A DNA stretch of 64,000 nt from assembly GCA_003056085.1 (NCBI GenBank), contig LSNK01000001.1, positions 8,481-72,480 on the forward strand, written 5' to 3'. The position numbers were made by a program, and so were the translations under genes. The number at the start of each line of letters is the position of its first letter. Position 1 is the stretch's first letter. Below are positions 321 through 62,712 of this stretch, in pieces. The DNA is from Parcubacteria group bacterium M6-OD1-1 (lineage in GTDB: Bacteria; Patescibacteriota; Minisyncoccia; GWC2-36-17; M10-OD1-4). The notes below the pieces were generated by a model. It did not search any database. It was not told the DNA's origin and saw only the letters and a list, made by a program, of their open reading frames with translations.

Positions 321-515
321 TTATTTTATTAAATCATCAACACTCATTTCAAGCGCTTTGGATACTTTTTGCAAAGTATCAAGTGTAGGATTTTGATTCG
401 CGCCGTTTTCTATCTTTACAATGGTATTGAGAGACAAATCAGCAAGACGAGCGACCCTTTCGAGAGAGTAGCCTTTTTCGGCACGTATCTTTTTTAAATT
501 ATTCGCTATGCTCAT
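321..515 (-). CDS. XRE-family helix-turn-helix transcriptional regulator (candidate R-M controller protein)
   Basis: 64 aa with a classic HTH_3 pattern (EKGYSLERVARLADLSLNTIVKIENG). It abuts the start of the methylase gene, as C proteins of R-M systems do. Confidence 0.8.
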   Translation of the reverse strand: MSIANNLKKIRAEKGYSLERVARLADLSLNTIVKIENGANQNPTLDTLQKVSKALEMSVDDLIK

Positions 516-640: not shown

Positions 641-742
641 AAGGCACTGCGTTTTGTTGCTAAATTAAAAATTTAGACAAAACGGGAGGCTAAAGCACTG
701 CATTTTGTTGCTAAATTAAAAATTTAGACAAAACGGGAGCCT
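641..742. repeat. Tandem direct repeat (2 x ~48 nt), each unit a hairpin (GTTTTGT..CTAAATT AAA AATTTAG ACAAAAC) followed by CGGGAG
   Basis: Two near-identical units are visible at 641-690 and 689-742. They sit between the XRE gene start and the GC-rich region. Confidence 0.6.
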
Positions 743-784
743 TCCAATCTTTCGCGGCTCCCTCCTGCGTCCCCCGTTTTTTTA
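733..784 (+). terminator. Terminator/attenuator-like stem (GGGAGCC..GGCTCCC inside AAAACGGG..CCCCCGTTTTTTT)
   Basis: Nested inverted repeats followed by a T-run on the plus strand. Confidence 0.35.
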
Positions 785-794
785 AGGATAAGGA

Positions 795-1100
795 AATTTT
801 GGTTTTGCGCGGAGCGGAGGACGAATGGAGGCAAGCGGAGTGTGTGCGCTTGCGCGCACACGGAGTTTGCCGAAGTAAGGACGGAGCGACCCCCGAGGCA
901 CGGTGGAGTTGGCATTATCACGCGCTCCGAGCGTGAGATTAGGTTCAGAGCTACCACGCCGCGTGGCGCGTGCGAGTTATTAATCGCTCTGCGATTGTTG
1001 TTCAAAAAAGGTTCGAGCAAAGGATACAATCTCAATCAGGTGACTGTGTTACGTGGGGAGTTGGCGGTTGCGACGATGACTAATAACAGTTTACGACATC
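795..1100 (+). ncRNA. Candidate structured RNA of unknown class (GC-rich island in an AT-rich genome; strand uncertain)
   Basis: About 58% GC over ~300 nt, with many local hairpins (GTGTGCGCTTGCGCGCACAC; CGCGCTCCGAGCG; CCACGCCGCGTGG). It ends at a strong intrinsic terminator. The overlapping ORFs (842-1105 +, 724-1035 -) are Arg/Gly-rich and look like GC artefacts. Confidence 0.35.
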
Positions 1101-1105
1101 AATAA

Positions 1106-1139
1106 AAAGCTCTGTTTTATATAATCAGAGCTTTTTTCT
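1106..1139. terminator. Bidirectional rho-independent terminator (AGCTCTG..CAGAGCT + T-run, A-run on the other side)
   Basis: Perfect 7-bp stem flanked by A- and T-runs. It serves the plus-strand GC-rich RNA and the minus-strand gene ending at 1125. Confidence 0.8.
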
Positions 1140-1979: not shown

Positions 1980-2235
1980 AATATTGGATAATATAATAAA
2001 ATTATTTATATATTATATCATAAATCACACAATCCCTCCGCATTGTGTCGGAATCTGTCTTTTGACGAATTTTTGTTTCGTAACGCGCCTGCGGCGCGGT
2101 CGCGCTTCGCGCGAAAGGGGCTGATTCTGCAACGATTTGCCACGCTTTGCGTGGCAAAAAAGAAATGTTTTGGTTTTGGATTTGGAAGTTCGAACCAATC
2201 TTTTTTAGAAAATCCCGAAAGGATTCGGGATTTTC

Positions 2236-2640
2236 TTGCAAAGCGATAATTTTAATAATATTTTGACTTTTAGAAATATGGAAAAAGAAAATCAAGCCAA
2301 AAAGTTTTTTATCTACGCTCGCAAGTCAACGGACAACGAGGATAGACAAGTTCGGAGTATTGGCGACCAAATTGCTGAATTGCGGGAATTGGCGGAAAAA
2401 GAAAATTTGGAAGTTGTTGACTTGCTTGTTGAAAAACAAACCGCCAAGAGTCCGGAGCGTCCTGTTTTCGCCGAGATGTTGAATCGGATAGAAGCGGGCG
2501 AAGCGTCGGGAATTTTAGCATGGCACCCCGACAGATTAGCTCGCAATTCCGTTGATGGCGGACAAATTATTTATCTTGTTGATACTGGTGTTATTCGCGA
2601 GCTAAAATTCCCAACTTTTGGTATTATTGTGAAGGTTTTT
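2236..2640 (+). pseudogene. Serine recombinase/resolvase, N-terminal catalytic-domain fragment (truncated)
   Basis: FFIYARKSTDNEDRQVRSIGDQ...GILAWHPDRLARN matches the serine recombinase catalytic motifs (YxRxSt, DRLxRN). Homology stops after ~125 aa, and the frame then runs antisense through the neighbouring hydrolase gene. Confidence 0.7.
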
Positions 2641-3203
2641 GGCTCATCGGCATTATTAAAAATTCTTTTTACATCATCGGGAGTAATAAGTGTATCTTGT
2701 TCACCAGCAAATAAAACAATCGAGGCTGTTATTTTTGCAACATCTTCAACAACATTGTATTGTGTTCTGTCCTCTACATGCGAGAAAGGTACACGAAACT
2801 CTCGTTTTTTATCTCTGTTGCTTGGCAAATCGCGAGTAGATACACTCACGCCAATTTCTTTCCATTCTCTTTCTCTCTTTGGTGTCATTGATTCGTCCGA
2901 TGATGGCATAATGCCAAGCACTTTTGAAATTCGGTTATCACGCGCTGCATACAAAAGCGAAACCATGCCACCACGACTATGTCCGCCAAGCAAAATGTCT
3001 GTATATTCGCTTTGGGTTAGCGTATATTCAAGTACACTTTTTATATCGGAAAGATATTGCGTAATTGTATAATCAGTAATATCGCCATCACTATCCAAAA
3101 CGCCAGTTGGATCAAAGCGCACCGAAGTATATCCATGCTTAGTTAATTCATTTGCTAGTTCCGCCAATCCGACATAGTCTTTTGAGTCCAAAAGCCCGGA
3201 CAA
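2571..3203 (-). CDS. Alpha/beta-fold hydrolase (GHSRGG nucleophile elbow); the N-terminal 32 codons sit in another frame up to the ATG at 3296-3298 (frameshift in a T4 run, plus-strand A-run at 3190-3193)
   Basis: The ORF as given starts at TTG. The upstream frame reads MNITKDFIKGTKGNLSVAIHYPETKTEKLAILCPGF and joins LDSKDYVGLAELANELTKHGY if one T is added; LAILCPGFLDSKD is the typical HGF oxyanion segment. Confidence 0.75.
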   Translation of the reverse strand: MSGLLDSKDYVGLAELANELTKHGYTSVRFDPTGVLDSDGDITDYTITQYLSDIKSVLEYTLTQSEYTDILLGGHSRGGMVSLLYAARDNRISKVLGIMPSSDESMTPKREREWKEIGVSVSTRDLPSNRDKKREFRVPFSHVEDRTQYNVVEDVAKITASIVLFAGEQDTLITPDDVKRIFNNADEPKTFTIIPKVGNFSSRITPVSTR

Positions 3204-3309
3204 AGTATCGCCAGTTTTTCCGTTTTTGTTTCTGGGTAATGTATCGCAACAGAAAGATTGCCTTTTGTTCCTTTTATAAAATCTTTTGTGATGTTCATAT
3301 TGAAATTGT

Positions 3310-3909
3310 TTACTTTGTAATTTGCTCTATCAACTCTGGAAGCTCTTCAACTTGGAAGTGTCCGCTATCCTCAAAAATGTGCTTTTGTGCTCTTAACAAC
3401 TCTTCCGCGTATGCCTCAAAATCTCCGAAGTCAACAACATCGTCATCTTTTGAATGATACAAGTGTATTTCCGAAACTTGCTTTTCTATATTTTCAAGTG
3501 TGCCCGTCAATACAAAACTTGAACGCTTGATACAACTCCTATCGCCAAACGGAGCGGCGAGCAAATGCAACGACTTTATTTTTCTCAGGTATGTATTCTC
3601 TGCAAGATACTTTACAAGAAATACACCACCGAGAGAGATGCCAACAAGAACAACATCATCGTCAATATACTGCGTATATTTCTCAAACCAAATCTTCCAC
3701 TCGTTATATTTTGCATTCCAAGCACACGGCATTTGCGGTTTTATAAGTTGGTAATTTTCACCGAGATCTTCTTCAAGAGATTGACTCCATTTTTTAGGTG
3801 GCTCGTCATTCGGGTCACTTGGTTCAGTAGACTTAAGAAAATCCAAATATGCCTCGTTATTTTCCCAAGACTCACCACCGTGTATTAAAATTACTTGTTG
3901 TTTTTTCAT
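3310..3909 (-). CDS. Alpha/beta hydrolase, YdeN/RBBP9-like serine hydrolase family
   Basis: VILIHGG...W...VLVGISLGG pattern. Confidence 0.75.
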   Translation of the reverse strand: MKKQQVILIHGGESWENNEAYLDFLKSTEPSDPNDEPPKKWSQSLEEDLGENYQLIKPQMPCAWNAKYNEWKIWFEKYTQYIDDDVVLVGISLGGVFLVKYLAENTYLRKIKSLHLLAAPFGDRSCIKRSSFVLTGTLENIEKQVSEIHLYHSKDDDVVDFGDFEAYAEELLRAQKHIFEDSGHFQVEELPELIEQITK

Positions 3910-3913
3910 ATTT

Positions 3914-4123
3914 TTATTTCGTTAAATCTCCAACACTAACTCCAAGCGCACTCGCAACCTTTTCCATTGTGCTAATTGTAAGATTTTGTTTACCATTCTC
4001 AACATTACTGATATATGCTCTATCTAAATCTAACGCTCGGCAAATGTCGCCTTGCGACATTCCTTTTTCTAAGCGTATCTTTTTCATATTGTCTCCAAAT
4101 TTTTTTGCTGTATTTTGACTCAT
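3914..4123 (-). CDS. XRE-family HTH transcriptional regulator
   Basis: MKKIRLEKGMSQGDICRALDLDRAYISNVENGKQN is an HTH_3 motif. Confidence 0.85.
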   Translation of the reverse strand: MSQNTAKKFGDNMKKIRLEKGMSQGDICRALDLDRAYISNVENGKQNLTISTMEKVASALGVSVGDLTK

Positions 4124-4198
4124 GTTTTATCTAAAAGTTATCAACTTTGGTATTTTAACATACCATTATGTTATCACTCAATAGTAAGTTTCAATGTG

Positions 4199-4288
4199 CG
4201 GAGGGAACAGGATTTGAACCTGCGGTAGGCGTAAACCTACACATCCTTTCCAAGGATGCGCCTTAAACCACTCAGCCATCCCTCCAAA
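4199..4288 (-). tRNA. tRNA-Ser (anticodon GGA), long variable arm
   Basis: Reverse complement GGAGGGATGGCTGAGTGGTTTAAGGCGCATCCTTGGAAAGGATG...GGTTCAAATCCTGTTCCCTCCG folds as a class II tRNA with a 7-bp acceptor stem. Confidence 0.9.
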
Positions 4289-6204: not shown

Positions 6205-6318
6205 TGTTTATTTTTTGTTATTACGATTAACCGCTTCTTGGAGTTTTAGCAAGCATACCAACTTCAGACAGAAAGTTAGCTATATTTTTTCTATCATCTT
6301 CCATAATGAAAAGGTATT

Positions 6319-6945
6319 TTAGAAATTAACTTTAACCGGCTCTTTGGCAGCCTCTTCTTCCAGTTCAAAAAACTCTTCTTCTTTAAAGTTAAATATTCCC
6401 GCTATTAAGTTTTGAGGAAACATCTGCACGGCATTGTTCATCTCTTTTACATTTGAGTTGTAAAATCTTCTTGATGCTTGTATTTTATTTTCCGTATCTG
6501 TTAACTCCCTCTGAAGCTCCAAGAAATTCTCATTTGCCTTCAAGTCAGGATAATTCTCAGAAACTGCAAATAAACTTTTTAAAGCTCCTGTAAGCATATT
6601 TTCCGCTTCTTGTTTTTCTCCTACATTTTGTGCACCCATCGCCTTTGTTCTTGCTTCTGTAACAGCTTCCAAAACTCCTTTTTCGTGTGCAACATACCCT
6701 TTTACAGACTCTATTAAGTTCGGGATTAAGTCGTACCTTCTTTTTAACTGAACATCTATGTCAGACCACGCATCTCTTACATTGTTTTTTAGCCTAACGA
6801 ACGCATTATACATCGCAACGAGCCATAAAACGATTACAACTGCAATAGCAATGCCATTTATTTTCCAATCAATAATATCAAAAAGACCGCTTACAACAAG
6901 CGCCACAACGATTAATCCAAAAATAAAATTCCAAAAATTATTCAT
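6319..6945 (-). CDS. lemA: LemA family protein
   Basis: N-terminal TM helix, then YNAFVRLKNNVRDAWSDIDVQLKRRYDLIPNL..., the hallmark LemA pattern. Confidence 0.85.
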   Translation of the reverse strand: MNNFWNFIFGLIVVALVVSGLFDIIDWKINGIAIAVVIVLWLVAMYNAFVRLKNNVRDAWSDIDVQLKRRYDLIPNLIESVKGYVAHEKGVLEAVTEARTKAMGAQNVGEKQEAENMLTGALKSLFAVSENYPDLKANENFLELQRELTDTENKIQASRRFYNSNVKEMNNAVQMFPQNLIAGIFNFKEEEFFELEEEAAKEPVKVNF

Positions 6946-43740: not shown

Positions 43741-44169
43741 CTTGTTTTCTTCGTACGAAACAAATTTTAAATGTCCTTGTTTTTTTTCTTTGATCACTAA
43801 ATACAGTAAAGTTAACCTAAGGATAACCCTTAAATAACAATGGAAAAGTTACTTCCTTCTCTTACATTTTTCTGCGATTGGCTTATTAGTATTGCTCGCC
43901 TGAACACTTCACAGTGCTTACAGCTGCAACCTATCAACGTGATAGTCTTTCACGGGCCTATAGGATAAATCCAACGAGACCTAATCTTGGGTTGTGCTTC
44001 GAGTTTAGATGCTTTCAACTCTTATCACGACCGAACTTAGCTACCCAGCAATGCCCTTGGCAGGACAACTGGTACACCAGAGGTTCGTCCACTCCGGTCC
44101 TCTCGTACTAGGAGCAGCTTCCCTCAAGTCTCTACGCCTACAGCAGATAGAGAACCAACCTGTCTTACG

Positions 44170-44668
44170 CAAATGTAGCTACTAAAAATTTATTCAGTAA
44201 CGCCGCCATTACTGGCGGGATCGGACTATATCTTCATCCATCTATTTTAGATGGAGGCTAACGTTTAGTCTCTACGGGTAGTTATGAATTTTATTGAGGA
44301 GCCAACGATATTGTTGTTGGCTCTACTTAGGGTAGGAACATAGCTAAACATATTCCACATTGTGGTTTCTGCAAACGCTCATGTTCAGCACATCGGCATA
44401 TCCCAGCTATTTATCCCGTGCGTCCGCGGGATCCTTCGGGCCCCGCCTCAAGTGTGCCGGCGTGTTAATTCACACCGCTTGTCTTAGAGAATAGATATCC
44501 TCAATAAAATTCATAACCTTCCCTCGGTATTGTCCATGTTATACAACATTAGGATTTCACCGATATAAGTTAGCTTCTCATACAAAATCACTTTTGTATG
44601 CCGCCGTATATGATGTCAAACCTCGGATTCAGACTGTAAAACATCCTTTCTTTTAAAAAAGGTGCTTT
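44170..44668 (-). mobile_element. Group I intron without ORF in 23S rRNA at the E. coli U2593/C2594 equivalent
   Basis: Exon junction GGGTTCAGACCGT | ...~499 nt... G | CGTAAGACAGGTTGG aligns to GGGUUUAGAACGU|CGUGAGACAGUUCGG. The 5' exon ends in U and the intron ends in G. Confidence 0.65.
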
Positions 44669-44737
44669 ACGGTCTGAACCCAGCTCGCGTACCGCTTTAA
44701 TTGGCGAACAGCCAAACCCTTGGAAGCTTCTCCACCT

Positions 44738-44768
<31 letters not shown>

Positions 44769-44804
44769 GAACCTTGCCGTCGATATGAACTCTTAGGCAA
44801 GACC

Positions 44805-44841
<37 letters not shown>

Positions 44842-45330
44842 TTCGCACTTTCTACAAAGTTACGTCGGATCACTAAGTCCTGCTTTCGCAACTGCGCGAC
44901 TTGTTAGTCTTGCAGTAAAGCCGGCTTATGCCTTTACACTATCAGTCCGATTTCCATCCGGACCTAGCCGACCTTAATGAACGCCTCCGTTACCATTTGG
45001 GAGGCTAGCGCCCCACTAAAACTGTCTACCAGCCACTGTCCCCTTAAGGTTTTACCTTAAAAGTTAGTATTGCAATTATAAGAGAGTGGTATTTCACTGA
45101 CGACTCCATGTCACCCGAAAGCGACACTTCAAAGTCTCCCACCTATGCTACGCAATTAAAACAACAATACAATAACAAGCAACAGTAAAGCTCCCGGGGT
45201 CTTTCTGTCTAGCTGCAGGAAGAGGGCATCTTCACCCCCACTGTAATTTCACCGAGTGATTCGTTGAGACAGTTCCCAAGTCGTTACGCCATTCGTGCAG
45301 GTCGGAATTTACCCGACAAGGAATTTCGCT

Positions 45331-46072
45331 CGATCTTTGTTACTGATTCTACCTAAATAGAATTGGTGTAGTCATTTCTGCTACACTCTCTATGTCGCCA
45401 TAGAGTCCGGACTATATCATCACGCTTTTTTACAGCGCGCCTGGCGTATAGTCTCTGAGGATTCTAAAAATCTGGATTGTTTTTTTCGATTCATTAACTC
45501 TATTTTTTTTGCTATTTTCTTCATTCCTTTCATGGAAAGATGTTCTTTTTTCGTCATTATTTCCATTATTTCAGCAAAAATTTTGAAATCTTTTCTTTTT
45601 GCTGTTTTTAAAGAATTACTTCTGAAAAACGGAATTATTTTTTCATTTAAATCATCCATAGATCTTACACAAAATCTTAAAAGATTTTCTTTATGATCAT
45701 CATATCGATTATTTTTAAAAATTTTTCCGCAATTAAAATAGTCTTTAAATAAAGTTAAAGCATCTAAGCTTTTCTCCCCTTGAGTTATTACAAACTCAGG
45801 GAAAACTTGCCATCCAAGTTTGGAAGTTTTGTTTTTTATAATACTAACAGAGAAACAACCTTCTCCATCAGTAAAACCAATTATCCAACCTATAATTTTT
45901 AGCCTTTCCTGCTGATTGTCTGCACTGGATACATTTTCACTATAATAGTTTTTCATATCTATGGAATAATTATACCATAGATATTTTTCTATTATTAGTA
46001 GTACCAGATACTACAGGGTTTTACCCACAGGTGTTCCAGCATATGGCCAGGTTTTACTAAGGCAAGAAATTC
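45331..46072 (-). mobile_element. Group I intron in 23S rRNA at the E. coli U1931/A1932 equivalent (helix 69-71 region), carrying a LAGLIDADG homing-endonuclease gene
   Basis: Exon junction ...TAACTATAATCGTTCTAAGGT | ~742 nt ...AAAGATCG | AGCGAAATTCCTTGTCGGG aligns to CUAAGGU|AGCGAAAUUCC. It follows the U ... G rule. Confidence 0.75.
45420..45956 (-). CDS. LAGLIDADG homing endonuclease (single-motif, I-CreI-like)
   Basis: IIGWIIGFTDGEGCF LAGLIDADG motif; 178 aa; located inside the 23S intron. Confidence 0.85.
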   Translation of the reverse strand: MKNYYSENVSSADNQQERLKIIGWIIGFTDGEGCFSVSIIKNKTSKLGWQVFPEFVITQGEKSLDALTLFKDYFNCGKIFKNNRYDDHKENLLRFCVRSMDDLNEKIIPFFRSNSLKTAKRKDFKIFAEIMEIMTKKEHLSMKGMKKIAKKIELMNRKKQSRFLESSETIRQARCKKA

Positions 46073-47844
46073 ACCTTAGAACGATTATAGTTATCGCTGA
46101 CGTTCACCGGCGCTTCGGGCGTTAGCAGTATAATAAATTATACCACCTTCACCGTTAACGTTCCGGCACTGGTCAGGCGTCACCCCCTATACATCCTCTT
46201 ACGAGTTAGCAGAGAGCTGTGTTTTTGGTAAACAGTCGCCTGGGATACTTTCGCTGCGGCCTTAACTGAAAAACTGGATTTTGAGGGGAAGTGTACTCTT
46301 ACGCTTCCCGGATTTTAAAAATGGTCGGAAAGGATTACGCAGACATACTGCATATTTTGGGGTATTTAATCCCAAAACAGATATATCATTTTCGGTAATC
46401 CTCACCGTTTAAGCTTTACTCAAAATCCAGCTTCCCAGCAAGGCAAGCCTTATTCCGAAGTTACGGCTGCTTTTTTGCCGAGTTCCTTAACGAACTTTCA
46501 CTCGTTCACCTTGGTCTTCTCGACCTATCTACCTGTGTCGGTTTACGGTACGTGCACACTAAAAATATTCTTAGAAGTTTTTCTCGGTCGCCAGCTCATC
46601 TGAATTGGTGAAAAAACACCTCTTCTCAACTCTTGGAGTTGTGATTAAACACAGCTTTCCGGATTTACCTGGAAAACCTCCTTAAGCAAAGAACGTAAAT
46701 CCAATAATACGCTCAAACTACTTAGCCACGTCACTCCATCGATTTTTAGCATGGTGCAGGAATATTAACCTGCTGTCCATCAGCTCCGCCGTTCGGCATC
46801 GCCTTAGGTACGACTAACCCTTGGTTGATTGTCATTGCCAAGGAAACCTTAGATTTTCGGTGTACTGGGATCTCACCAGTATTGCGGTTACTTATGCCAA
46901 CATTCTCACTTCCTGACGCTCCAGCATGGCTCACGCCAACACCTTCACAGCAGACAGGAACGCTCCCCTACCACACCGCTGCAAAGCAGCGATATCCACA
47001 ATTTCGGTAGCATACTTTAGCCCCGGTACATTTTCGGTGCAAAATCTCTAAACTAGTGGGCTGTTACGCACTCTTTAAAGGATGGCTGCTTCTAAGCCAA
47101 CCTCCTAGCTGTTTAAGAAATTCTACCGCCTTTAATCACTTAGTATGCATTTTGGGACCTTAATTTGTGGTCTGGACTCTTTTCCTTTTGACCATGGAGC
47201 TTATCCCCCACAGTCTGACTCCTGAGCTATATTGAATGGAATTCGGAGTTTGATTGGGATAGACAGCTTGCGCCATTCTAACTCATCCAGTGCTCTACCT
47301 CCATTCATAAACACTCAAGGCTATACCTAAATATATTTCGGGGAGAACCAGCTATTACCAAGTTCGATTAGCTTTTCACTCCTTACCACAGGTCATCCGA
47401 ACGTGTTGCACAGCGTATCGGTTCGGGCCTCCCTTTGATTTTACTCAAAGTTCACCCTGCCCATAGTAAGCTCACTTGGCTTCGGGTTTTATGCATGCTG
47501 CATAGACTTGTCACTTAATGATTCTTTCTGCTGCAATTAATATTTTTCTACTACGCAAACCTCACCACTCGTCAGTGAATAATTTTATTCACTTCCTCGT
47601 GTTTCAGCTTGCTCATGACGAAAAATATCAATTTCGCTACGAAAAATCCATTAAGAGACAAGTCTATTTCGCCCTATTAAGACTTGGTTTCCCTACGCCT
47701 ACCCTCTTTGCGAGGTTAAACAGGCAACATACATAAACTCGTTGGCTCATTCTCCAAAAGGCACGCCGTCACCCTGATAAATCAGAGCTCCGACTAATTG
47801 TAAGTATATAGTTTCAGTTCTATTTCACTGCCCTCACCGGGCTA

Positions 47845-47885
<41 letters not shown>

Positions 47886-48654
47886 TAAAAAGTATTTAGC
47901 CTTGGGAGAGTAGTTCTCCCGGATTCCTACGGGGTTGTCTTTCCCCGCAGTACTTAGGTACAAATACTTAGAGTGTTTACTAATTTTCATTTACGGGACT
48001 ATTACCCTCTATGGTTGTCCTTTCCATGACAATTCAACTAAAAAGCAAAACTTGTTTTACTCTATTTTAAATAAATTTAAAAACGCATTTGCCCTGCAAC
48101 CCCTAATATGTGTAATAAATTATACTTATTAGGTTTAGGCTTCTACCGTTTCGCTCGCCGCTACTAAGGTAATAACTATTGTTCTCTTTTCCTCTGGTTA
48201 CTGAGATGTTTCACTTCACCAGGTTCGCTGCTTTTGATTTTAACTCAAAAGCTATCTTGATTTTACTCAAGATGGGTTCCCCCATTCGGAAATCTCCGGA
48301 TCAAAGGTTGCTGAGCACCTCACCGAAGCTTATCGCAGCCATGCCACGTCCTTCATCGCCTTTTTATGCCTAGGCATCCACTATATACCCTTATTCCGCA
48401 AAAAAATGAAAGTTAAGGAATAACTTTTCTTTTGTTTCACTCAATAAAATTTTCTCCTGCATAGAAGAAAAAATTATAATTTTTGTTATTGATAACCACC
48501 ATAAAATAAATCTTATTATTTTATAATGATTAAAGGAATAACTTTACTGTATTTAATTATCAAAGTTCTCACAGGCTCCAAACCTGTCCTAAAATAAATT
48601 TTGTTATGAAATTTATTTTAGGACAAACTTGGTACATTTTGTTTTGTATAAAGG

Positions 48655-61949: not shown

Positions 61950-62165
61950 TTTACATATTCAGACTCGGCGGAAACAAAACCGAAAATTTCCTTTCATTTT
62001 TTTTGCGGCTCCCCCACACCCCCGCCGAAAGCATAATCGGCAAGGAAATTTTCGGTTTTGTCCGCCCGAGCTTTACGAAGGGCGGGTGAGGCGCGCAGAG
62101 TTAGGAAATCGGAGCGGAAGATATTGTCTGGAGCTACATCAAAACTCGAAGCGCTCCGAATTCGT
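61950..62165 (-). ncRNA. Candidate structured RNA / att-associated structured region (GC-rich island), unknown class
   Basis: An 18-bp stem (AAAACCGAAAATTTCCTT / AAGGAAATTTTCGGTTTT), plus CCGCCC..GGGCGG and CGGAGCG..CGCTCCG stems. It lies adjacent to a tRNA-Trp 3' fragment. Confidence 0.3.
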
Positions 62166-62167
62166 TG

Positions 62168-62222
62168 TGGTGGGCCCGGCAGGACTTGAACCTGCAGTCC
62201 TGGTTTTGGAGACCAATTGGGG
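62168..62222 (-). other. tRNA-Trp 3' fragment (anticodon arm CCA + T-arm + acceptor 3' strand with encoded CCA), no 5' half
   Basis: Reverse complement TTGGTCTCCAAAACCAGGACTGCAGGTTCAAGTCCTGCCGGGCCCACCA. It shares GGTCTCCAAAACC with the intact tRNA-Trp 420 bp upstream. Confidence 0.6.
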
Positions 62223-62469
62223 CTGTTACTGAATATGCTTTCTTAGCAAAATTGATTTAATTTCAGACGAAAACGATAAAAATTGAAGAACTTATATTTT
62301 AATATAGGTGATGAAATTTTTATAGTTTGCAGGCGAAATTAAACAATTGTAGCAGAAATGATATTTAGTAATAGTCCCACTTACCAATTAACCGACGAGC
62401 CCTTAATTTAAAACATTGAAAAAACTTTGATTTTATTTGCTTTCCACATTTATTTTCGGCAAAACAAAA

Positions 62470-62616: not shown

Positions 62617-62641
62617 ATATGTACTGGATTAATTATTTTTG

Positions 62642-62712
62642 CGGGCCCTGAGGGAATCGAACCCCCGACCGAGGTTTTGGAGACCCCTATTATACCACTT
62701 AACTAAGAGCCC
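62642..62712 (-). tRNA. tRNA-Trp (anticodon CCA)
   Basis: GGGCTCTTAGTTAAGTGGTATAATAGGGGTCTCCAAAACCTCGGTCGGGGGTTCGATTCCCTCAGGGCCCG cloverleaf; CCA not encoded. Confidence 0.9.

Follow-up and report, generated by a model that had tools for sequence, protein, structure and literature searches.

The DNA analysed here is a 64,000-nt stretch of the genome of Parcubacteria group bacterium M6-OD1-1 (contig LSNK01000001.1), called the window below. A preliminary description of this stretch singled out positions 641–1139 as a GC-rich candidate for one structured RNA. We find that 641–1139 is a composite and not one gene. On its left lies an XRE regulator gene that heads a type I restriction-modification (R-M) cassette, and on its right lie the end of a peptide gene, a transcription terminator, a gene for a 284-aa protein and a truncated recombinase gene. 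Between them stand an inverted repeat that we call P1 (620–807), a purine-rich segment (808–899) and a core of ~135 nt (900–1034) that recurs in other genomes. We lean towards reading the GC-rich stretch as a palindrome-rich non-coding boundary module, to which the surviving tail of a small peptide gene is attached. Contigs and loci used for comparison carry the handles L001 to L027.

The 5′ arm of P1, CAAAACCATAAAATTTC (620–636, + strand), pairs with its 3′ arm, GGAAATTTTGGTTTTGC (791–807, +). Equivalent arms of 17–21 bp are present in 10 versions; they differ between genomes yet stay matched, both arms changing. The P1 loop segment (740–790, +) is C-rich and then passes into a T-run (GGCTCCC..CCCCCGTTTTTTTAAGGATAA), and nine other loci have a homologous loop of 47–56 nt. 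The + strand carries the C-rich form in the window, L012b, L015 and L026; in L023a, L027, L014, L019 and L022/L025 the loop is reverse-complemented relative to its arms. P1 is followed by a variable purine-rich GC segment (808–899, +) which contains a hairpin (830–872) and repeated GGAG and GGAA motifs, referred to below as GGAR. GGAG occurs at 811, 816, 827, 837, 862 and 883, and the segment is expanded in the window compared with other loci.

The core (900–1034, +) consists of three related GC dyads with 3-nt spacers and then near-invariant TTCAAAAAAGGTTCGAGCAAAGGTTACAATCTCA; its near-invariant block is A-rich/GGTTCGAGC. Searches with blastn, MAFFT alignment and an nhmmer profile gave about 20 copies in L012–L027 (nhmmer E 1e-41 to 1e-20; 9.5e-37 for the window). 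Fifteen metagenome contigs were retrieved by a 20-mer from the conserved block at 1005–1024. L012, a contig of a metagenome-assembled genome, was retrieved by a 24-mer from 612–635, and it carries the same XRE, a shorter whole element and a second partial copy. Contig ends bound several inferences on these loci. Cores of different hosts are 78–92% identical, while flanks, cargo and upstream modules are unrelated; the upstream modules are of the P1 type, of the type seen in L016 and L013b, or AT-rich as in L013a. The cores have a GC content of 42–51% in loci of 30–46%, and copies differ by frame-breaking indels of 1 and 2 nt. In most copies homology ends at the nucleotide that corresponds to window position 1034. 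It extends past 1034 in contigs of near-identical strains (L001–L003, L007) and in L013a only. A tRNA-like or T-arm reading of GGTTCGAGC was dropped, as the flanking bases are unpaired and neither ARAGORN nor Rfam reports a tRNA there. In L017, where the 5′ half of the core is replaced, a gene for an IS110-family transposase (609–1676, −) lies directly upstream of the core copy and is co-directional with it.

Genes on the inner side of the cores belong to defence systems. They encode type I R-M (window, L004), a TdeIII restriction endonuclease with two methyltransferases (L013), type III mod/res (L025), an EcoRI methyltransferase with GmrSD-HNH (L015), ResIII with a HerA-like protein (L026), a superfamily 1 helicase (L023) and a D12 methyltransferase (L014). 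The gene next to the core, and divergent from it, is an XRE gene in the window, L012b, L015 and L019. The mobile or defence-island setting proposed in the preliminary description is thus borne out, since many other genomes have homologous copies that lie beside R-M systems, XRE genes and genes for large serine recombinases. Inverted, outward-facing core copies bracket the cargo in L013 (20–154, −, and 6223–6349, +), L025 (238 nt, 100% identical) and L023, and in L015 and L026 the inverted partner copy lies at the contig end. L013a, which comes from a relative, has the same junction of core and peptide relic as the window, with different cargo on the other side; a comparison of the two suggests a cargo swap at one junction.

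The outer ends of the cores meet tRNA genes, palindromes or recombinase genes. In L017 (tRNA-Phe) and L019 (tRNA-Leu) the core is joined to the tRNA 3′ end via a perfect palindrome of 50–52 nt. In L014 it ends at the 3′ end of tRNA-Ser, and 18 nt of this tRNA lie within a direct repeat of 67 nt. A second copy of the module in the window (61974–62162, +) has three parts: P1 (61974–61993/62042–62061; 20/20 pairs in the arms and a C-rich loop of 48 nt), then a segment of GGAR motifs and a core-like stretch that is truncated. It abuts a partial tRNA-Trp (62168–62229, −; Rfam tRNA 18 bits, model positions 7–64), of which only the 3′ part is present, 0.4 kb from an intact tRNA-Trp (62641–62712). Two marks of a tRNA-linked island were therefore found: an end at a tRNA in L014, L017, L019 and this second copy, and a duplicated tRNA 3′ fragment in L014 and the second copy. 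The stretch 61974–62229 is probably another decayed island end. The first copy lies 3.2 kb from tRNA-Ser(gga), the same tRNA that the core adjoins in L014, and L014 is syntenic with the window (tRNA-Ser(gga); HtpX 65% identical).

Perfect palindromes with arms of 16–26 bp stand at other core outer ends. Perfect palindromes of 36–52 nt with 4-nt loops were observed right after the core in L012 (107–163), L013 (6350–6399), L017 (245–290), L019 (89–136), L027 (4135–4186) and L022 (245–280). They share their outer bases (CCGCAA..TTGCGG or GCACAGAAT..ATTCTGTGC), the sequences inside bear no relation to one another, and they might serve as terminators or recombinase sites or be inverted-repeat pairs that have collapsed. 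In L015 and L018, and also in L025b, the core is followed on the same strand by a gene for a large serine recombinase, 215–221 nt downstream. Inverted repeats of ~130 bp (95–100% identical) flank this gene in L015 (4694–4824/6272–6402), L018 (6064–6193/4491–4620) and L025 (1666–1797/122–253). The near repeat begins precisely where the core ends in all three loci, and in L018 and L025 the far repeat begins precisely at the 3′ end of a tRNA (Arg, Trp). By its layout, the repeat-flanked recombinase looks like an insertion sequence (IS)-like recombinase cassette. No cognate transposase was found for the defence cassettes; their sole recombinase is the large serine recombinase outside the repeats. 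A symmetry of attachment (att) sites across the junction of core and flank was considered and rejected, as the symmetry of the arms, read by eye, was inconsistent between loci.

The sequence after the core belongs to a different locus. Positions 1035–1086 (+) are the relic 3′ end of a precursor gene for a graspetide, a ribosomally synthesized and post-translationally modified peptide (RiPP) of the ATP-grasp type. Frame +1 at 1036–1086 reads ..SGDCVTWGVGGCDDD and two stops, with S preceding GDCVTWGVGGCDDD, which is encoded at 1039–1080. In tblastn searches the precursors of L008, L009 and L010 matched 1027–1080 (E=1e-8, 8e-6 and 1e-6). The motif GDCVTWGVGGCDDD aligns with GDCVTWGSGGCDDD of L008 and with other precursors and has the C-terminal form of a graspetide core (omega-ester, microviridin-like). 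In contrast to a working precursor gene, the conserved leader (..F.LDFAFELP..) is missing in frame upstream, and tblastn found no ATP-grasp homologue in 500–1200 (a weak match, E=0.02, lies elsewhere in the window). A degraded ATP-grasp gene in 641–1034 was also considered, and it gave no tblastn signal. Because the precursor match comes without a leader and an ATP-grasp gene, 1035–1086 is a relic.

An intrinsic terminator follows at 1104–1136 (AAAAAGCTCTGTTT/AATCAGAGCTTTTT). Its 14-nt arms (1104–1117/1123–1136) are 93% complementary, with an A-tract before and a T-tract after them, so the bidirectional terminator placed at 1106–1139 in the preliminary description is real. A consensus terminator scan missed it, probably because the G+C-rich core stem has an 11-nt loop. 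The stop codon (1125) of the 284-aa gene (1125–1979, −) lies inside the 3′ arm, and the terminator is shared by this gene and the relic. The 284-aa protein has six homologues (34–44% identity) in a family of 282–296 aa that includes L008 3961–4809, L009 5001–5855, L010 3540–4421 and L011 111–1001. No significant Pfam domain was found in the family (best: DUF6911, 17.8 bits; TraB/PrgY/GumN, 13 bits; both below cut-off). In 4/4 contexts (L008–L011) these homologues are convergent with an ORF of 40–47 codons that has an MvdD-type ATP-grasp gene upstream, and the precursor ORFs end in ..DC[VI]TWG..GCDDD and a stop. The family is therefore likely an unrecognised member of that RiPP cluster, and its convergent place beside the relic adds to the graspetide likeness of the window locus.

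This peptide-locus fragment is about 1 kb long. It is bracketed by ACAATCTCA (1026–1034), the end of the core, and by the 13-mer ACAATCCCTCCGC (2026–2038, +), in which the final 8 nt of a second core apparently run into the first bases of the sequence found behind cores elsewhere; an identical 13-mer stands at the L016 core end. GC-rich palindromes and a second GAAATGTTTTGGTTTTGG box follow at 2039–2277 (+), and the P1 3′ arm box recurs at 2162–2178. Their position resembles that of the ~130-nt repeat. We considered 2039–2250 as a homologue of the repeat of L015, L018 and L025 and rejected it: style and position are the same, and the sequences are unalignable past the first 13 nt. The remnant of a large serine recombinase gene, its N-terminal ~110 codons, lies at 2278–2620 (+; Pfam Resolvase, E=5e-17). 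It is 57% identical over 106 residues to aa 5–110 of the 519-aa recombinase of L015 and is GC-richer than the genome.

The analysis shows the layout of the region, its homologues with their gene contexts, and the peptide relic; the DNA-level role of the module and any link to recombinase action are inferred. On balance, 641–1139 is probably a module that acts at the DNA level, as the boundary or terminal repeat of a mobile defence cassette that has decayed, in a CPR (Candidate Phyla Radiation)/Patescibacteria-like genome. It would form the outward-facing edge of a cassette that holds the XRE controller and the type I R-M genes, and this edge would be joined to the fragment of a peptide-biosynthesis locus. 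Outward from XRE, the proposed parts would be P1 with its C-rich segment (here with two additional 51-nt units), the run of GGAG-rich palindromes and the 135-nt core. The module may act as a terminal repeat or junction that joins cassettes to tRNA 3′ ends, to palindromes or to a large serine recombinase cassette. Cargo would be exchanged at the module, and its dyads and inverted repeats may bind proteins or be prone to recombination. Judged by L015, the parts should stand in the order cargo, XRE, P1, GGAR segment, core, GC repeat and recombinase. In the history that we propose for the window, the 1-kb graspetide fragment (relic, terminator and 284-aa gene) would have come to separate the core from the recombinase, which is truncated. 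The system in the window thus looks immobilised and decaying.

Several points weigh against a DNA-level boundary module. The inverted pairs are known from relatives, and the left end of the window cassette lies beyond the window. Target-site duplications or direct repeats were not found at the outer ends of L013 or L025, where the junctions were read by eye. The recombinase gene, where present, is outside the repeat-bounded cargo, and no large serine recombinase is known to need or use terminal repeats of 135–240 bp. The homologues form a small sample and were fished with exact 20–24-mers, which makes those blocks look more conserved than they are. Other points fit a transcript. Where an AT-rich genome retains high GC, the usual cause is selection on RNA structure. 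Across copies, GGAR motifs between P1 and the core number 45, against 10 of the complement, with G exceeding C on the same strand; such a bias is unexpected for a purely double-stranded DNA site. A strong hairpin stands 0–8 nt past the core in 9/17 copies and could be a transcription terminator. One candidate helix (columns 77–85 with 145–153) is kept only via G-U-compatible transitions.

These last points lead to the alternative that survives best, which we consider possible and less probable than a DNA-level role. The module would encode an outward-reading non-coding RNA, either a small RNA or a long structured recombinase leader, that regulates the island through recombinase expression or read-through across its edge. 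Transcription would run from an XRE-divergent or local promoter through the GGAG-rich hairpins and the core to the post-core hairpin; in the window, 1104–1136 would substitute for a lost hairpin. The GC richness, the consistent one-strand bias and the post-core hairpins argue for such an RNA. So does the core's position co-directional with and directly upstream of the recombinase gene in L015, L018 and L025b, as do the wobble-compatible helix and one compensatory change in the hairpin CAATCGC/GCGATTG (L014).

Composition and folding are relevant to the same question. GC content is 0.56–0.65 across 751–1000, the highest GC peak of the window (mean 0.343) and above that of the 23S rRNA gene, and falls to 0.44 across 1001–1100. 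Local palindromes are dense (for example GTGTGCGCTTGCGCGCACAC at 843–862). The minimum free energy (MFE) of 786–1140 is −120 kcal/mol on the + strand and −94 kcal/mol on the − strand, and the lower + strand value favours an RNA. Compared with shuffles, z is −1.9 (+) and −2.3 (−). With values only about two standard deviations below shuffles on either strand, the self-complementarity noted earlier is real as many short local palindromes and does not amount to one strongly folded molecule. A single structured RNA of ~300 nt closed by the terminator, as first proposed, is not supported by the anatomy: the conserved element stops at 1034, and the terminator with the preceding ~50 nt belongs to the graspetide relic locus.

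Comparison among copies also speaks against an RNA. The covariation score of a hand-built five-helix model was reached by 21/500 shuffles, so the check for covariation in homologous islands yielded a weak signal; the model has 83% paired cells against 81% in shuffles and is weakly supported. RNAalifold keeps two 6–7-bp hairpins of the core only, the dyads with 3-nt spacers. The mean MFE z of the copies is −1.65 (+) and −1.36 (−), near −1.5 on both strands. The long stems contain 406 Watson-Crick pairs, 5 G-U pairs and 5 other mismatches, which is no G-U excess. In half the loci the P1 loop is present as its reverse complement, and an RNA made from it would be wholly different; the upstream modules differ, which leaves no common promoter or 5′ end. 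T-runs behind the post-core hairpins are irregular. Of the two copies in an inverted pair, one follows the cargo operon downstream and its partner is divergent from the operon. A guide or bridge RNA of the IS110-like kind was rejected as well: the longest matches that the upstream region has with sequence flanking the recombinase cassette are 7–8 nt, no better than shuffles, which leaves no guide-like complementarity. The weak covariation and fold signals, the missing G-U excess, the inverted P1 loop and the varied 5′ modules lead us to favour the DNA-level role over an outward RNA.

With Rfam 15, which includes ROOL, GOLLD, HEARO/omega RNA and group I/II introns, no family matched 641–1139 at gathering score, and at E<=10 only terminator-like chance matches of <=22 bits appeared; among the 14 related loci scanned, no match to the element was found in L012–L027. 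ARAGORN found no transfer-messenger RNA (tmRNA). The earlier exclusion of RNase P, signal recognition particle, tmRNA and 6S RNAs by signature thus holds, and a 6S-like RNA was dropped for want of model support. A retron-like RNA, one of the original suggestions, is not supported: none of the ORFs called within 9 kb (not all of them Pfam-scanned) looks like a reverse transcriptase, and none was found among the Pfam-scanned neighbours (XRE, HsdM, the 284-aa protein, which has no reverse transcriptase domain, and the serine recombinase fragment). Searches of phage and plasmid collections (blastn) gave nothing relevant, and scans of IMG/VR with DNA patterns and neighbour proteins gave nothing.

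A bolder form of the boundary reading is one that we regard as rather unlikely. In it, the core and the following palindrome or ~130-bp repeat would be the landing or recognition site of an inverted-repeat-bounded large-serine-recombinase cassette of a kind not described before. Site and cassette together would make up a new system of cassette exchange, in which defence genes are shuffled at hot spots linked to tRNAs in CPR bacteria, and a GGAG-rich outward transcript might take part.

We also think it unlikely that the region is functionless debris, left over from foreign DNA of higher GC and from repeated rearrangements at a hot spot of integration, and conserved only through the recent horizontal spread of the islands. 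Decay of the window copy (the truncated recombinase, the peptide-gene relic and the duplicated 51-nt unit) would suit this explanation, as would the high GC of the recombinase fragment and the free gain, loss and inversion of modules between loci. It does not account for cores that remain 78–92% identical across hosts amid unrelated flanks and cargo and share the same end point, for their GC content above that of the host loci, or for the co-change of P1 arms with 17–21 perfect pairs in ten versions. This pattern of core identity, GC and arm co-change needs selection or an active copying mechanism.

Inside the P1 loop of the window lie two tandem 51-nt units (641–691 and 692–742, +; 94% identical), each a palindromic hairpin GTTTTGT..ACAAAAC followed by CGGGAG. 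The preliminary description had recognized the tandem hairpin repeat correctly and had measured its unit as 48 nt. The units are missing in L015 and L026, where window position 636 joins 740 directly, and L012b has a single unit whose hairpin apex and inner stem are of different sequence. The palindromic insertion is thus optional, and the units are not a conserved operator for XRE. That they are operator sites of the adjacent XRE controller, as had been suggested, is very unlikely in spite of their dyad symmetry and their place 125–230 nt upstream of the XRE start codon. L015 has a homologous XRE gene and the same intergenic region and no units, L026 has none either, the one unit of L012b is altered, and the part kept together with the XRE gene is 516–636. 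An attenuator-like stem had also been described at 733–784. Its stem GGGAGCC/GGCTCCC, the pairing AAAACGGG/CCCGTTTT and the T-run are present; the terminator-like hairpin at 733–760 is partly made by the tail of the second 51-nt unit (CGGGAGCC), which pairs with GGCTCCC of the P1 loop and so creates the apparent attenuator. A type III toxin-antitoxin locus (ToxI-like) was rejected, as there are just two repeats, no conserved + strand ORF follows them and they are missing from homologous loci.

Extremely unlikely is a protein-coding gene or pseudogene across the GC-rich stretch. Open frames of 87 and 103 codons exist (842–1105, +; 724–1035, −), and the 87-aa ORF is called as a gene in one public assembly; the ORF and a six-frame concatenate matched nothing but the ORF itself among 5.8 billion proteins, there is no Pfam hit, and homologous copies carry the 1- and 2-nt indels. 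Just the last 16 codons of frame +1 match the peptide family, and that part is unshared with the other copies. The six-frame search was too insensitive for a 16-codon peptide relic, which local tblastn found. The ORFs called here are artefacts, as had been supposed. A degraded gene from a GC-rich donor, named earlier as what would overturn the RNA proposal, does not explain 795–1034 (six-frame null result, indels); a degraded small gene does explain 1035–1086.

The general kind of system is already known. Transposon-like R-M units with long inverted repeats on either side, and units of R-M and integrase genes inserted at tRNA genes, have been described (Furuta, Abe and Kobayashi 2010, PMC2853133). 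The loci studied here resemble them in that R-M or other defence genes are bracketed by inverted repeats and linked to a recombinase and tRNA 3′ ends, a tRNA 3′ fragment is duplicated at the junction (L014; window 62168–62229), and cargo varies at equivalent sites. They differ in the repeats, which in the known units are cassette-specific and 26–65 bp long and here belong to a shared, modular family of GC-rich non-coding sequence of 135–330 nt in many CPR genomes. They differ also in that no target duplication is seen and the large serine recombinase, with its own ~130-bp inverted repeats, stands outside the repeat-bounded cargo.

Islands with large serine recombinases are known to carry or co-mobilise defence genes, such as those of the staphylococcal cassette chromosome (SCCmec) type (PMC11470126). 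The likeness lies in a large serine recombinase (Resolvase, Recombinase and Zn ribbon domains) beside variable defence cargo at a fixed chromosomal landmark and in the tandem accretion and decay of elements. Known islands of this kind, in contrast, have att sites of ~50 bp and direct repeats, and none is described with a 135-nt core, P1 or 130-bp repeats around the recombinase gene. P1 is also similar to miniature inverted-repeat transposable elements (MITEs) and Correia or ERIC-like elements: it is a unit of ~88 nt with perfect 20-bp terminal inverted repeats, and the window has at least two such units. The presence of its interior in both orientations and the tandem duplication of the 51-nt unit recall MITEs and hairpin-associated inversions. 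Unlike MITEs, P1 shows no identified target-site duplication, keeps a fixed place relative to the core instead of being scattered, and has arms that vary yet are perfectly matched. Invertons share with it an inverted-repeat-bounded segment that occurs in both orientations near a recombinase gene and a regulator; here the invertible part is ~48 bp with no promoter identified, and the two orientations are seen between genomes and not within one population.

R-M genomic islands have been reported in Patescibacteria, in a study that does not mention recombinases, inverted repeats or tRNA junctions (PMC12455944). A literature description of the shared non-coding module was not found, which is weak evidence of absence, and this module appears to be the new part, while R-M units at inverted repeats or tRNA genes and serine-recombinase defence islands are not. 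CPR bacteria, or Patescibacteria, have tiny genomes, mostly lack CRISPR and rely on R-M, and the spread of R-M between their genomes is poorly known. The shared boundary module would help to locate defence cassettes, and the points at which they are exchanged, in uncultured CPR bacteria, and it provides defined DNA substrates for recombinase tests. It also holds two lessons for annotation: GC-rich ORF calls at such sites are artefacts, and a GC-rich island need not be a structured RNA just because the genome around it is AT-rich.

The XRE gene on the left (321–515, −; Pfam HTH_3, E=1.2e-14) is divergent from the element. It heads the cassette XRE-HsdM-(DUF3800)-HsdS-Fic-HsdR, the operon continuation of which was read in L004. 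An XRE gene that is the same or very similar, together with the region upstream of it, precedes unrelated genes, namely HsdM in the window, RadC in L005 and a DUF2268 protease in L012, and the XRE module seems to be a portable controller. L012 also has a different XRE, with RadC directly after; the stretches compared are window 321–515, L005 1–400 and L012 1968–2171 and 3194–4082. The XRE-proximal intergenic region, a promoter or operator zone (516–619), is near-identical in L004, L005, L006, L012b and L015. A 35-codon ORF at 558–665 is probably not coding, because its substitutions are mostly non-synonymous in alignments read by eye. Its likeness to a second graspetide precursor (FLEF..KG..ESKT) was dismissed as not significant (E=67), and its ESKTIKF is the P1 arm.

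Public assemblies made independently from near-identical strains break within the region: L004 ends at window position 681 (in the 51-nt repeat) and L001 at 891 (in the GC-rich segment). These breaks suggest that it is repeat-like or variable in natural populations. The stretch between the recombinase remnant and tRNA-Ser(gga) (2571–4285) contains two ORFs that are alpha/beta-hydrolase-like by eye and a second ORF resembling a helix-turn-helix protein (3914–4123). In the syntenic L014 just 186 nt separate the core from tRNA-Ser, so the stretch is probably additional island material that has accreted. The 23S rRNA gene of the window (43867–48404, −) gives a match of 4538 nt against a model of 2925 nt, which leaves ~1.6 kb of insertions (introns or expansion segments). 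Large 23S rRNA insertions are typical of CPR bacteria.

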